Below, in pieces: positions 21,001 to 27,000 of a stretch of DNA of 60,432 bases. Within the stretch, counting starts at the first letter, position 1, and the number at the start of each line of letters is the position of its first letter. The position numbers are program-made. The stretch lies in sequence record MW584209.1. The stretch is one strand, 5' to 3'. Source of the stretch: Mycobacterium phage prophiGD04-1.

Positions 21001-24000
21001 GCGAGCTGTTCCTCTGCTGGAGCTGCGGCAAGACCATCCGGCGCCTGCTGGTAGGTCAGAAAGTAGCCCGCCGCAAGGCAACCGAGGCGCAGGGGGAGGA
21101 GCCGGGCATCATCTGGTACCTAGACCGCCTCATGGAGTCGGCTTACCTGCAGACCCGCATGGGGTCAAGCAGTGTCCGCATGGCGCCCGACTCAATGCCG
21201 TTGCTCCCGGATAGCCGCGCTTCCATGCTGCGCCACCAGATCCACACCGCGCTGACCTCGTGGGTCAAGCAGCTCACCGAGAACCGCGGTATTCGGTTCC
21301 TGCCACTGGACTCGGTGGAGTCAGACTTTGTCGGCCCGCTGCGGCCCGGGTGGCGCCGTATCCCTCCTGACTACACGGCGACGAGTGCGGAAATGGCGCG
21401 CTGGCTGGCCCACAACCTCCTGGCGATCATGTCCGAGGAGAACGCCGCCGAGCTGTACGACGAACTCGTAGCGCTCACCAGGAAGGCGCACAGGGCCATC
21501 GACCGCCCCGAGCTCCAACTCTTCGGGGAGTGCTCGAAGTCAATGGGGGAGAGCGACGAAGGTGTCCCGCTCACCTGCGGAGTAAAGCTCTACGCCGAGA
21601 AGAGCGAGACCGTTGTCGCGTGCCCGCGGTGCCGATCGACATACGGCGTCGATGAACTCCGCGACGACATGCGTACCCGGGCACGCGATCAGCCCATGAC
21701 GGGAGCAGACGTGCTGCGCATGATGAAGATCGCCGGCGAGGCACCACCACCATCGACGTTCTACAAGGTGCTGCGCCGTGTCATGCCTCGCCTGTACTTG
21801 CATGCCGATGGCCAGCGCAACCAGCACCGGACACCAGGCTGCAAAGAGCTCTACGCCTACGACGACGTGGTAGCCAAACTCAATGAGAAGCCGACTCACC
21901 GGCGGCATGAAAGGCAGCGACGCATCGGTTGATCGACCGATCACAAGACCAACTGTGCGATAGCTCTCTTGGTTGACGGTCGGTATTCCGAATAGGCGGC
22001 GCCGTAGGTCAGCCCACTGAGCGGGGATTTCGGCAACATTGATTGGGTGAGTCACCGCTGGTCATGCCCGATTGGATCTTGCTATCACCCACACCAAAGA
22101 AGACGCTGTGAACATTGTTTGCCGATGGTGCTCACGCGATCTTGACTGTTGGATTATGCTGGGCTGATTGTTGGAGCGCAATGCAGAGCATGGTTGCGGG
22201 TGTCGGGAAGGTGAACCGTCGGTGAGTTCCGTGAACCGTGATGTGACCGAGGCGACAATAGTGTTTGCGTGCCGGGACCTGACCCATTCCAGCGAACCCC
22301 AGAAGGAACCCGTCGCCGAGCCGACGTCAGCCAGTAATAGCGCTCGCCGGGTCGCGTCTGTTTTCGCCGGGGCGGTGTTGGTGGTGGCTGCGGTTGCTGG
22401 CCTGCATGGCTTGTATCGGGCCGGTGGCGATGTCGCCGCGTGGGGTGTGTGGGCGCTGCTGCTGCTGGCGGGGATGACAGCCTTGGGCGGCGGAATCAAG
22501 CTCATCACCTGGGGTGTGAAGCCGGTGATCGCGGTAGTTTCCGCTGCTGGTAAGGAACGGTTCTCTGAGCCGGTGCAGGCGGTGGCCGCGTCAGGGGCAG
22601 TCATCGCCGGGGCCGTGGGTTTGTGGTGGACGTTGCGTGGCGGCTACGGCACCTGGTGGCAACACCTTTCGGGAGAGACCAGCTGGACACTGCTGCTCGG
22701 TATCGGGCAGATGCTGGTGGCCGTGCTCGCTGGAGCTGCGCTGTTCACGGGCGGTAAGTACCTGACGGGCCTGGCCAAAGAGGTATTGACTGATGCCGGG
22801 ATGCTCGGTGCTCGCGACCGTACTTCTGCTGCCGAAGGCGCTGGGGCGCATCGTAATCAGTCCCGCAAGAACCAGGACGAGTCGTTGTGGCATCCGGGTC
22901 TGCTGGCGGCATTGATTGGTGGCGGGGCCGGGTTGGTTTTGTTGACCGCTGGGATCACGCCTCGGCTGTATGTGTGGATCACCGGACCCGATGTGCTTCC
23001 CGCCGTAGCTGCGATCGCGGCCACGCTGGTGTGGGCGATCGGCTCGAACCTGGGCTGGTGGAAAGGCCTTGCGGGCCTGTATACGTGGGCCACCGATGCT
23101 TCGCAGAAGGCTGGCGCGGTCGCTGGAGTGGCTGCGGTGCTGATGTTCTCGGCCAGTGGTCTGGGTCTGGGATGGTTTACCCCGGCCACGGTGCCCCAAG
23201 CGCATGCGCAGTGTCCACCGGATTGCGGAGGCGGCTCCAACGGCGGCTCCTACGGGCCAGATGCCTCCCAGTTTCAGCCGCCGCAGATGCCCAACCAGAT
23301 GCCGGACTATCAGGGCGGGATCAATCAGCCGCCGATGGATCAAAACAGCTCGATCTCGATTTACAACACTCAGGCTCCGTCGGTCAGCAATAACGGCAGC
23401 CAGGGTTCCAGCGGGCAGCAGGGACCACAGCAGAGCTGGGATCAGCCCGCACACGGCACCCAGATCCCGGACTACCAGAACGCCACCCCGTATACGCAAG
23501 GGCCCGGCAAGCCGAATCCAGATTTCAACCCAGGATCACAAGGCGCACAATCGAACCCAGGATCCAATGCGGGATCACAAGGCGGGCAAGCCAACCAAGG
23601 CACGCAGCAGCTGCCGTCGCAGAATAATGGCCAGCAGCCACCTCAAAACCAGCCGCCACAGAACAACACCGGGCAGCAGCCGCCTCAACAGAACTCTGAG
23701 CAACCGCAGCAGTCTGATCAGCAGCGTCTTGACGAACTGGCCCGCCAGCTACAAGACCAACAGCAGCAATCCACCCAGGATCGTCAACGTATTGACGATC
23801 TGACTAAGCAGTTACAGCAGCAGGGGCAGCAGAAGCAGAACAGTAACCAGAAACTCCCGAAGGCTCCGTCTAAGGACAAGAAGCAGGACGACAAAGACCA
23901 ACAGCAGGATCAGGACGACCAGTCCAGCACAACCGATCTGGCGTCCCTGCTGCTCGGTGCGGGTTCGACGCGTCGCCGTAAGGAAGACGACCAACAACCC

Positions 24001-27000
24001 CAACCCGACCAGCAGCAAGGCCCGGACACCCAGGCGCTCGCCCAAGATGGCGGCCAGCTGGCTTCCGGGCTGCCAAGCGACATCACCAACACCGTTTCCG
24101 ACAGTGTGAATCTGGGTCAATCGGCGGGATCGGCAGCGCAGAACTTCGGCTCAGCTGCCCAAGCGGGAGCGTCGTTGGCTTCGTCGGCGCAGTCCGGTGG
24201 AGTGAATCCACAGGACGCAATGACTGTGTTGCAGGGCGTCTCGGGAGGTGTCAAGGACACGGCGGACGCCGTCAAATCGGGCAGCCAGATAACCTCGACG
24301 TGGCTGGAAAATGGCAGTCAGACAACCCAAATCGTGTCAGACGTCAACCCGCAAACAAAGCAGCAGATGGAACAGCTACAGAGGTTCCTCGATGACGCGA
24401 AACAAGGCGCCGACGGCGTCGGCAAGATCGCCGACCTGACCTCACAAGGTGCGGGCATGGTCAGCAGCGGCGCAAGTCTAGACCCGTCTCAGGTGCAATC
24501 TGTCGAGCTGATGAGTGGCGACGCCACCGCCATGGCGAGCGGATTCCAGCAGGCGCCCCAGTTCGGATCGCCGAGCGACGTGCCGAACTTGCCCACTCCG
24601 GGACCGGAGCCTGCACCGCCACCTACAAAGACAGCCAAAGATGTACACGAGGCGTTCGATCCACTGCCACGAGGCGACGGCAAATCGCTGACTCGTGATG
24701 TTCGAAACATGCCTAGCTCGAACGAGGTTCGCGACTCATTCAATCGCTTGACGCAAGGTGCTCCGAACGGTCCCAGCTCCAACTATCCAGGCGATCAACG
24801 GATCCTTTCGGATGGCACAATCCTGGGCTTGCGCCAGAACACCAACTCCGGCGGCCCTGGAATCGATGTCAAGTACCCCGACGGATCTGACCAGTTCGTA
24901 CATGTCTCAAAAGAAGGGCTGGCCAACGAATCACATTCTGGCGGTGGCGGAGGTGGTGGCCCCGCTAGTTCTGGTTCCCGCGGCGGGGGTGCTGCTCCTA
25001 TCGGTGGACAACCTCCGATTCCTACTCAGGAGCCAAAGCCTGGAGGCGCGATGCCTGTTGGGCCGGGATCAATTCCCTCGCAACTACATCCGGATATCGG
25101 TCATCATTCCCTGCATATCCCGAGCCCGATTGAGCCTGGCGGCGGAGTCGAGGCCGACATAGAAGGAGGAGAATAGATCCATGAACAGCGCCCGTAACAA
25201 CGTCCTGATGGACGGGCTCGACGACTGGGTGCACTTCTACCGTGTGCATCGTCTGGTTTACCTCGCCAACCCAGACGCGTCGGTCGGCGAACTGCAAGCC
25301 GAATCGCTCAACACTGTGGCCGACCTTGTGAGTGCAGGGCTATACCAAGTCGGAACCGTAGAACGCGGGGCCGGTTTCGTCCCGTGGGACATTCCCATCG
25401 ATGAAGCACTAGACCGTATCCGGGCCGAATACGTCGGCCACTACGACGAAAACGGTGTCTGGGACTACGTGGCCTGGCTTAATCTCACCGACAAGGGAAG
25501 GCAAGTCGCTGAATCCCTTCTGCCCAAGGCGTAGCCGAGCGGTCTAAGGCGACGTCGTCGCCGAGCTCAACGAGAAGCAACCCGAGAAGCCGACCCACCG
25601 TCGGTTCGAACGAAGGAGTGGACACGCCCGTCCAGCGAGGCTGAGCAGCGAGGGCATCGCACGCTGAAAATCAAGGGCTTGTCTAGGGGGCGCCAGTCTG
25701 CGGCATATGTCGATTATCGGCGTATCCTTTGACGGCCTTGTCGAGGATGCCGCGCGCGAATCCAACATCGGCGAAAAAGTATCGGTAACCGCCTAGCTGT
25801 TGCGGTATTGGCATGGCGTCGTCCTCGTAATCTTGATACCTGGACTTGTTTTCATCAAGCAGAGCGCGAAGCTCGCCTATGGATCTTATGTTTACCGCCG
25901 CCAGCTCGTCTACAAAGCGTGAATACTCTAGATCATCTGCAGGCATGCGATCAGGATAAAGTTCCCTCAATAGTGCTTTCGCCGTACTTCTGTCAATCGT
26001 GACGTCAGCGGTTATCTCTTGCCCGCGTATTAACTGGTCTATTAGTCCTGTCAGTCTGCGTGAGGCGGATTCATCGAGACGGCGCGAGCTATGATTGATC
26101 TGCTGAAAGCTGTTGTCAGCCACATGGAACAGGCCGGCCAGTGCACTAATGTCCCTTTTTAGCTCATCGGGAATGCTGTCCTTCCCCTTATATGCAAGAT
26201 GATGCTCGACAGAAGCCCATGCGTCCTGCAATATCGTGCGAACTTGGATCTCGAATTGTTGATGCTTCACCGAATTATAGCGAGCGCCACTGTGGGAATC
26301 TCCGAGTTTGCAATTGAAGTGCACTGACGAATAGCGCCATATTTCAGGAGGTGATACCTTGCCTTTGTCTTCGTATTCAAGTATTTCGAAGGTTTCTCGA
26401 ATTACGTTCTCGACACTTGGCACGTCCTCGAGGAAGAGGCACACCAACCGGGCTCCTACAAGATCGCCCATCTGCTTTATCGGATTCGCATAATTCTTGC
26501 GCCTAACCTTTTCGAGGAAGCTGGACTTTGTCTTGACCCGGGTGATAGCTGAGTGAACTTTGATGCCAGCATCGGTCAGAGCGTTCTTTAGGGAGAACTC
26601 GACCTCGTCACAGAGTGCTTGATAGAGCCCCGCGGACTCGTCGTACTGTCGCGCCCAATCTTCCGCGCCCCGGTCTTCCCCTGGATCAGTCGTCACGGTC
26701 AACATGATTGCGCATGCGGGAATCCGGCGAGCGCAGTATTCCTAATCACACGCTTGTAATTAGCGTGCTGACCTCGTAGAATTCGGATAGCAGTAGCGCA
26801 ACTATGCCCAAAACAGGACGCTTGGCGTGCGTAAATCGAGGTTGGCGCAATGTCGGAAGTTACCGACTGGATCTCGGCTGGGGCCGCGGTTGTTGCATCG
26901 GGCATAGCTGTCGGCGCCGCGTTTTACGCCTGGCGAGGGGCGAAGGCGGCAGAGCGATCTGCCGAGTTCGCGAGTGCCTCGGCGGACGCGAGTACCCGGT

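Follow-up and report, generated by a model that had tools for sequence, protein, structure and literature searches.

Two adjacent genes in the middle of the Mycobacterium abscessus prophage prophiGD04-1, of cluster MabE1, most probably form a moron that encodes a polymorphic toxin together with its cognate immunity protein. The genes extend from 22168 to 25176 and from 25181 to 25534 in the window, which is the complete prophage of 60,432 bp. Toxicity of the first product and neutralization by the second are predictions. By sequence, the two genes qualify as a polymorphic toxin system in the sense of PMC3482391, as every testable defining feature of such a system is found. The layout of the pair is as follows.

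22168..25176, + strand: predicted polymorphic toxin gene, 1002 residues from the TTG at 22168, by open reading frame (ORF) calling; stop codon at 25174-25176
22351..23181, + strand: N-terminal membrane anchor, residues 62-338, with seven transmembrane (TM) helices predicted by hydropathy and Trp/Gly-rich invariant motifs
23212..23232, + strand: CPPDCGG hinge, residues 349-355, directly past the last TM helix; invariant in 10 of 10 scaffold proteins examined
23263..23532, + strand: conserved stalk module, predicted extracytoplasmic, residues 366-455, SQFQPPQMP...YTQGPGKPNPDF (PHROGs 35557, 30921)
23533..23937, + strand: spacer rich in Gln, including a coiled-coil-like repeat (LDELARQLQ...IDDLTKQLQ) and a low-complexity stretch of acidic and basic residues, from composition; conserved in homologues
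23938..23985, + strand: invariant motif DLASLLLGAGSTRRRK, residues 591-606, candidate processing/release site (9 scaffold proteins)
24025..24567, + strand: helical A/G/S/Q-rich pre-toxin module, about residues 620-800, then a Pro-rich link; 51-60% identity in homologues with differing C-terminal domains
24628..24912, + strand: predicted C-terminal toxin domain, globular, 95 residues, 821-915 (216 representative homologues)
24913..25173, + strand: Gly/Pro-rich C-terminal tail, 87 residues, 916-1002, including a segment rich in His, and acidic at its end
25162..25171, + strand: strong Shine-Dalgarno sequence GAAGGAGGAG for the immunity gene, within the end of the toxin gene, by direct sequence reading
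25181..25534, + strand: predicted cognate immunity gene, 117 residues, isoelectric point (pI) 4.5, without signal peptide, winged-helix fold

Toxin domain, partner and carrier

The predicted warhead is a 95-residue domain of a widespread family that matches none of the libraries searched, namely Pfam, NCBIfam, PADLOC and PDB sequences. An exhaustive HMMER search with residues 821-926 recovered 216 representative proteins at E<=1e-3. The N-terminal regions of these homologues, 59 of which were scanned with Pfam, include RHS repeats, PT-HINT, WXG100, LXG, PPE, EspC-like and T7SS_signal segments, and no Pfam family falls over the toxin domain itself in the 59. That is, one toxin domain is combined with several kinds of trafficking N-terminus. 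A case in point is P0001, from Mycobacterium assembly GCA_002013715.1, which has a WXG-type N-terminus, with the W and G invariant in its family, and bears the prophiGD04-1 toxin cassette, including the tail, at 80% identity. In most members, the toxin domain is the end of the protein; outside mycobacteria it lies 0-6 residues from the end, and there is no tail.

The consensus of the domain is DV..LD.LP.G....V..V......LF..LT.G......YPG....LPDGT.IG.R..S.SGGPTIDI.YPDG...KVH. In the alignment, G883, R889 and H912 are invariant, and Y873, G875, D882, T884, G896, D900 and P904 are nearly so. The domain has no match in Pfam, NCBIfam or PADLOC. Sequence searches of PDB, using single proteins as well as profiles of the toxin domain and of the immunity family, gave only spurious matches to repeat proteins. 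A word-indexed search with the 107-residue toxin domain alone gave zero matches though an 80%-identical relative exists, which is a limitation of the index. The toxin is most likely a small nuclease, and our leading guess is an RNase with a barnase/RelE-like topology.

The 117-residue acidic protein is identified as the partner that follows this toxin domain in 19 of 20 loci, in P0001 and in L043. It has 18 Asp and Glu versus 9 Lys and Arg residues, four Trp residues and no signal peptide. Like the toxin domain, its family has no Pfam, NCBIfam, PADLOC or PDB sequence match. In the case of P0001, the toxin gene is followed 4 nucleotides (nt) on by the gene for a 118-residue protein that is 68% identical to the partner (E 3e-62). 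A genome scan using a sub-alignment of 10 toxin-domain sequences found 25 loci, 20 of which were analyzed for downstream ORFs. The 25 belong to Gammaproteobacteria, Planctomycetota, several Actinomycetota, Amycolatopsis, Saccharomonospora and other metagenome-assembled genomes. At 19 of the 20, the ORF overlapping or directly following the toxin gene matches a hidden Markov model of the partner, with E values from 2.5e-18 to 2e-4.

The same linkage is seen when the carrier is held constant. Among the viral and metagenome loci that encode the prophiGD04-1 type of scaffold (see below), only L043 has this toxin domain, as a divergent copy (E 1e-20), and L043 alone has a partner homologue, which lies downstream (6.8e-33). 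The genes downstream of other scaffold variants do not match the partner. Thus, the downstream immunity gene co-varies with the toxin domain rather than with the carrier. Orphan immunity genes near other toxin loci are found as well. The orphan partner homologues P0017 and P0014 adjoin toxin genes that have other C-termini in place of this toxin domain, and the orphan loci beside such scaffold toxins are L012 6001-6354 (with 6616-10136) and L015 4025-4381. One orphan copy lies beside dnaG in Mycobacterium sp. D16Q16 and is apparently chromosomal. The orphan copies suggest cassette turnover with retained immunity.

The remainder of the large protein is a modular carrier that bears many unrelated predicted toxin domains elsewhere. 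This scaffold, consisting of the approximately seven-TM anchor, the CPPDCGG hinge, the Q/P-rich stalk and the helical module, recurs in at least 10 other loci. A word-indexed search with residues 622-1002 recovered relatives that have the 620-800 module in common but different ends: Ntox44 (P0003), Endonuclea_NS_2 (P0005, P0008) and several that are unassigned. With tblastn, the TM/stalk scaffold was found upstream of the Ntox44 variant (L009), and further copies were found in M. stephanolepidis (L010), where the copy is interrupted by an insertion sequence (IS), and in Mycobacterium sp. D16Q16 (L012). The L012 copy, of 1062 residues, adjoins dnaG among housekeeping genes and is, therefore, apparently chromosomal. 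Scans of IMG/VR and the JGI metagenomes with an alignment of the TM domain found 11 more scaffold loci, including the following.

L044, L050: C-terminal Endonuclea_NS_2; downstream SUKH/SMI1-KNR4 protein
L045: C-terminal Glyco_hydro_19 (GH19); downstream 372-residue protein with an Arg-rich signal sequence
L051: C-terminal GH-E HNH nuclease; downstream unassigned 193-residue protein
L041: C-terminal Colicin-DNase/WHH nuclease; toxin gene split by a frameshift
L042: unassigned C-terminal domain; downstream DUF7674 protein
L046-L049: 33% identity; hydrophobic C-terminus

Thus, one carrier is found with alternative, unrelated C-terminal toxin domains. The first-pass annotation had proposed a delivered C-terminal domain with a small immunity partner, and the proposal is supported by the 19 of 20 adjacent pairs, by P0001 and by the scaffold with other toxin domains, each of which has a downstream gene of its own. 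Separately, the M. stephanolepidis copy (AP018165, L010 3266-7254) is a scaffold toxin gene split by an IS3-family insertion, with more transposases downstream; that is, an inactivated copy.

Anatomy of the large protein

Both ORFs are real genes rather than chance ORFs, because the large protein is conserved, at 57-84% amino acid identity, in other Mycobacteroides/Mycobacterium genomes and viral contigs. The first-pass annotation described a 1002-residue ORF followed 4 nt later by a 117-residue acidic, Trp-rich one, and this arrangement is present: 4 nt separate the toxin gene's stop codon from the partner's ATG at 25181. GAAGGAGGAG ends 9 nt before this ATG, and the position of a Shine-Dalgarno sequence inside the toxin gene suggests that the two genes are translationally coupled. 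The likely toxin start is the in-frame GTG at 22222, which matches the annotation of prophiGD54-1 gp39 (984 residues) and has GGAAGG 8-12 nt upstream. Homologues start nearer to the first TM helix than this GTG; for this reason, the true start is placed within 22168-22261, and the N-terminal 20-60 residues are uncertain.

The membrane anchor shows 57-73% identity across four homologues. Hydropathy gives seven TM helices, one fewer than the "about eight" first estimated. The anchor region, residues 1-357, has no Pfam family at E<=10. Past the hinge is a Q/P/N/G-rich region, extending from about residue 357 to 620, which has up to 31% Gln per 100 residues and includes the coiled-coil-like repeat. 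Searches of Pfam, NCBIfam, PHROGs and PADLOC with the partner, the entire large protein and each of four sub-regions of the latter found only function-unknown PHROGs, over the stalk, in keeping with the initial remark that no family could be named. Weak matches to T7SS_signal (E 0.089) and PSMbeta fall under the Pfam curated cut-offs and are best explained by low-complexity composition.

Within the Q/P/N/G-rich region lies the stalk module, residues 366-455, to which about 20 proteins from prophages of M. abscessus and M. chelonae are 55-66% identical. These have a single N-terminal TM helix, reckoned to be a signal-anchor, and varied C-termini (loci L003-L006). The single-TM proteins look like another family, of simpler build, of prophage effectors displayed on a stalk. 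As to individual members, prophiGD12-2 gp80 is a metallopeptidase, followed by the gp79 lipoprotein that is annotated as its inhibitor, and prophiGD44-1 gp34 and McProf gp50 have glycine-rich hydrophobic C-termini.

In nine scaffold proteins, the spacing between CPPDCGG and the motif DLASLLLGAGSTRRRK is constant. The consensus of this motif is D[LT][SA][SA]LL[LM]GAxSTRRRK and, like CPPDCGG, it is invariant and at fixed spacing in all close members; a homologue of 33% identity retains TQRRK. The helical module that follows was considered as a hidden WXG/LXG secretion domain, and the idea was rejected, as hhalign gave a probability of 0.1% against WXG-type N-termini.

The C-terminal region of about 250 residues noted at first is there, but it is composite, consisting of helical module, Pro-rich link, 95-residue domain and 87-residue tail, and the toxin domain is not terminal. 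The Gly/Pro tail is nearly invariant between the prophiGD04-1 protein and P0001, and tails of a similar kind come after unrelated toxin domains in mycobacterial relatives; the tail comparison covers P0001, P0006, L043, P0053, P0108 and P0116. Other mycobacterial members with the toxin domain have, instead, a Pro-rich tail plus a hydrophobic helix at the end.

Prophage setting and known toxin systems

prophiGD04-1 is colinear with, and about 96% identical to, prophiGD54-1 and prophi102-2. The cluster of the latter two is MabE1, later renamed HE, and MabE1 members of 60,432 bp at attB-4 are prophiGD04-1, GD68-1, GD53-1, GD111-1 and BWHD-1 (PMC8092301; PMC9934374). In prophiGD54-1, the equivalents of the toxin and immunity genes are gp39, a "membrane protein" of 984 residues, and gp40, a "hypothetical protein" of 117 residues; replication and DNA-binding genes lie on one side of this pair and terminase on the other. 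The toxin locus of prophiGD04-1 is at 22-25.5 kb of the 60.4-kb prophage, in mid-genome and not beside attL or attR. Its neighbors are a DNA-binding protein gene upstream and a RelA/SpoT-like gene downstream. The latter, and the genes of a second toxin locus, are as follows.

25683-26705, - strand: RelA/SpoT-domain protein, small-alarmone-synthetase-like, 340 residues (Pfam 2.9e-20; PADLOC candidate PDC-S33, 2.8e-13)
4362-6023, + strand: second toxin, canonical WXG-type (PEST), close to the prophage's left end, homologue of prophiGD54-1 gp10, with a C-terminal Abhydrolase_8 (Pfam 5.6e-25)
2783-4009: gene upstream of the PEST toxin
6020-6658 and 6669-7145: genes downstream of the PEST toxin

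The RelA/SpoT-like gene is convergent with the immunity gene. prophiGD54-1 lacks it and has an unrelated 175-residue gene in the same position, which makes 25683-26705 a variable moron slot. At E<=1e-5, the search for relatives of the RelA/SpoT-like protein in mycobacteriophages found none, and folding of the spacer at 25525-25690 gave nothing above background. In prophiGD54-1, the gene after gp10 is annotated as an LppA-like lipoprotein. Since the PEST toxin at 4362-6023 is present besides the 22168-25534 pair, a single prophage carries two unrelated polymorphic toxin systems.

According to published surveys, M. abscessus prophage toxins all begin with a WXG100 N-terminus, are accompanied by a WXG100 partner gene and are located beside att sites (PMC8092301; PMC10654092; PMC9934374). 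The PEST cassettes (Dedrick 2021, PMC8092301; Abad 2023, PMC10654092) resemble the present pair in that they occupy the same hosts and the same mobile elements, and in that a variable toxin at the C-terminus is followed by an immunity gene. Moreover, the toxin-immunity cassette of prophiGD04-1 is also found behind a WXG-type N-terminus in another Mycobacterium (P0001). The differences are considerable. The prophiGD04-1 toxin has no WXG100, LXG or T7SS_signal match and no adjacent small WXG100 gene; it has a seven-TM anchor with a long stalk and a mid-genome location away from attL/attR; and its length, 1002 residues versus roughly 50 kDa, is about double. ESX secretion motifs define the three PEST superfamilies, and this toxin is in none of them (PMC10654092). 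The early description of the locus as "not WXG-linked" thus holds for this gene, but not for the prophage, which has a PEST toxin, nor for the cassette, which is WXG-linked elsewhere.

Also relevant are the PrsW-peptidase-linked toxins, in which an N-terminal eight-TM domain is fused, directly or by a long linker, to variable toxins (PMC3482391). They are mainly Gram-positive and actinobacterial, and their export and release have been proposed to occur without a dedicated secretion system (PMC3482391). With a multi-pass N-terminal membrane domain and a variable C-terminal toxin, they are the nearest described architecture. They differ in having eight rather than seven predicted helices. Identification of the TM domain as a PrsW peptidase was rejected, as there is no Pfam match (E<=10) and no acidic or His catalytic motif of PrsW among the invariant residues.

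CpnT of M. tuberculosis has an envelope-embedded N-terminal channel domain, a Pro-rich linker, the C-terminal TNT and an adjacent gene for a cytoplasmic immunity protein, IFT. It is ESX-dependent and located in the outer membrane. The two-part layout of the prophiGD04-1 toxin is similar, but there is no sequence relationship, and the toxin domain is not TNT.

The likeness to CdiA/CdiI and WapA/WapI lies in the long stalk, the pre-toxin module, the swappable C-terminal toxin and the downstream cognate and orphan immunity genes. In those systems, however, the stalk is formed by FHA or RHS/YD repeats, as opposed to the low-complexity Q/P-rich segment and helical module found here, and the anchoring structure is an outer-membrane transporter or the cell wall rather than the producer's plasma membrane. 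The VENN and PT-HINT demarcation motifs are also missing from the prophiGD04-1 toxin. The first-pass annotation called the system undescribed; this is true of the N-terminal scaffold, but polymorphic toxin systems as a kind are already known.

Proposed mechanism, alternatives and significance

In the proposed mechanism, the anchor would insert with its N-terminus in the cytoplasm, and the C-terminal ~660 residues would be exported across the plasma membrane without an ESX/WXG signal, for display or release on its outer side. We infer this N-in, C-out topology from the charge distribution of the seven-helix model (19 Lys and Arg residues in the loops on the N-terminal side versus two in the other loops), from the signal-anchored relatives that have the stalk in common and from the variant that bears a GH19 cell-wall hydrolase and has an exported downstream protein. 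The toxin domain most likely acts inside the cytoplasm of a recipient cell, where the winged-helix partner would bind and neutralize it, in the lysogen and its siblings, because the partner has no signal peptide and the sister warheads are nucleases. Release may go through the invariant LLLGAxSTRRRK motif, and the Gly/Pro tail may aid passage across the mycobacterial envelope.

A broader proposal is that the anchor, hinge, stalk and helical module form a self-contained, ESX-independent, mycobacteria-specific device for toxin display and delivery, with STRRRK and the tail mediating release and passage, and that warhead and antidote are widespread, unmatched families of new activity. We regard this proposal as possible but doubtful.

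Several points weigh against a delivered polymorphic toxin. A tail of 87 residues after the toxin domain, here and in many mycobacterial relatives, is atypical of polymorphic toxins. The topology is based on hydropathy and analogy only, and no release protease, receptor or mycomembrane route has been identified. Consensus scans for promoters and terminators gave nothing above background and, hence, no support for lysogenic expression. Finally, the biological role of the WXG-type prophage cassettes has been left open, with competition, virulence or phage defence as candidates (PMC10654092).

Phage defence is the basis of one alternative, in which the multi-TM protein blocks or aborts other phages, as in superinfection exclusion, and the small protein is a regulator or antitoxin. 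The pair does occupy a variable moron region, where its neighbor is a RelA/SpoT-like gene matching PDC-S33, and the surveys allow a defence role for WXG-type cassettes (PMC10654092). But neither protein matches PADLOC, and the scaffold is also found in an apparently chromosomal setting beside dnaG. It bears export-type warheads, including the GH19 hydrolase with an exported partner. Further, the toxin-partner pair occurs on RHS, LXG and WXG carriers in many phyla, which fits secreted inter-cellular toxins. We consider exclusion improbable; it had been offered at the outset as an alternative, and nothing specific was found in its favor. An effector directed at eukaryotic host cells, in the manner of CpnT/TNT and with a partner that only shields the producer, is unlikely to about the same degree. 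M. abscessus is an intracellular pathogen, a virulence role has been proposed for prophage toxins (PMC8092301), and a self-protecting immunity factor is compatible with such a role. The pair, however, occurs widely among environmental Planctomycetota and Gammaproteobacteria and among soil actinomycetes, and orphan partner copies are typical of defence against a neighbor's incoming toxin.

It is far less credible that the large protein is a structural component of the envelope or surface and no toxin, with the partner a winged-helix transcription factor that regulates its gene. Low-complexity and membrane sequence do make up most of the large protein. Yet the partner has a pI of 4.5 and no helix-turn-helix family sequence match, and its occurrence goes with the 95-residue domain rather than with the scaffold; at the C-termini of sister scaffold proteins are recognized nuclease toxins, paired with SUKH-type immunity proteins. 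A MarR/PadR-type regulator, prompted by the winged-helix fold, was rejected on charge and gene linkage.

The polymorphic toxin with its cognate immunity protein, which we prefer to these alternatives, brings to light a previously unrecognized class of carrier, i.e., an ESX-independent, membrane-anchored carrier of polymorphic toxins found in the prophages and genomes of Mycobacteroides. Also new are the widespread toxin domain and its cognate winged-helix immunity family, which match none of the searched libraries. The published prophage surveys missed this variant, the gene being annotated only as "membrane protein". The second carrier class is present on many prophage-sized viral contigs and in at least one apparently chromosomal locus. 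Because this second, ESX-independent class exists, the toxin repertoire of drug-resistant M. abscessus, and of lysogens used or encountered in phage therapy, is larger than catalogued. A further outcome is a toxin-immunity pair that counts hundreds of members in different phyla and is unmatched in Pfam, NCBIfam, PADLOC and PDB sequences, together with a reusable extracytoplasmic stalk module common to other prophage-encoded effectors. A question is raised as to how a plasma-membrane-anchored toxin gets past the mycobacterial outer membrane to its target. If true, the delivery-device proposal would mean that mycolata have a hitherto undescribed trafficking route for toxins directed at other bacteria or at a host.

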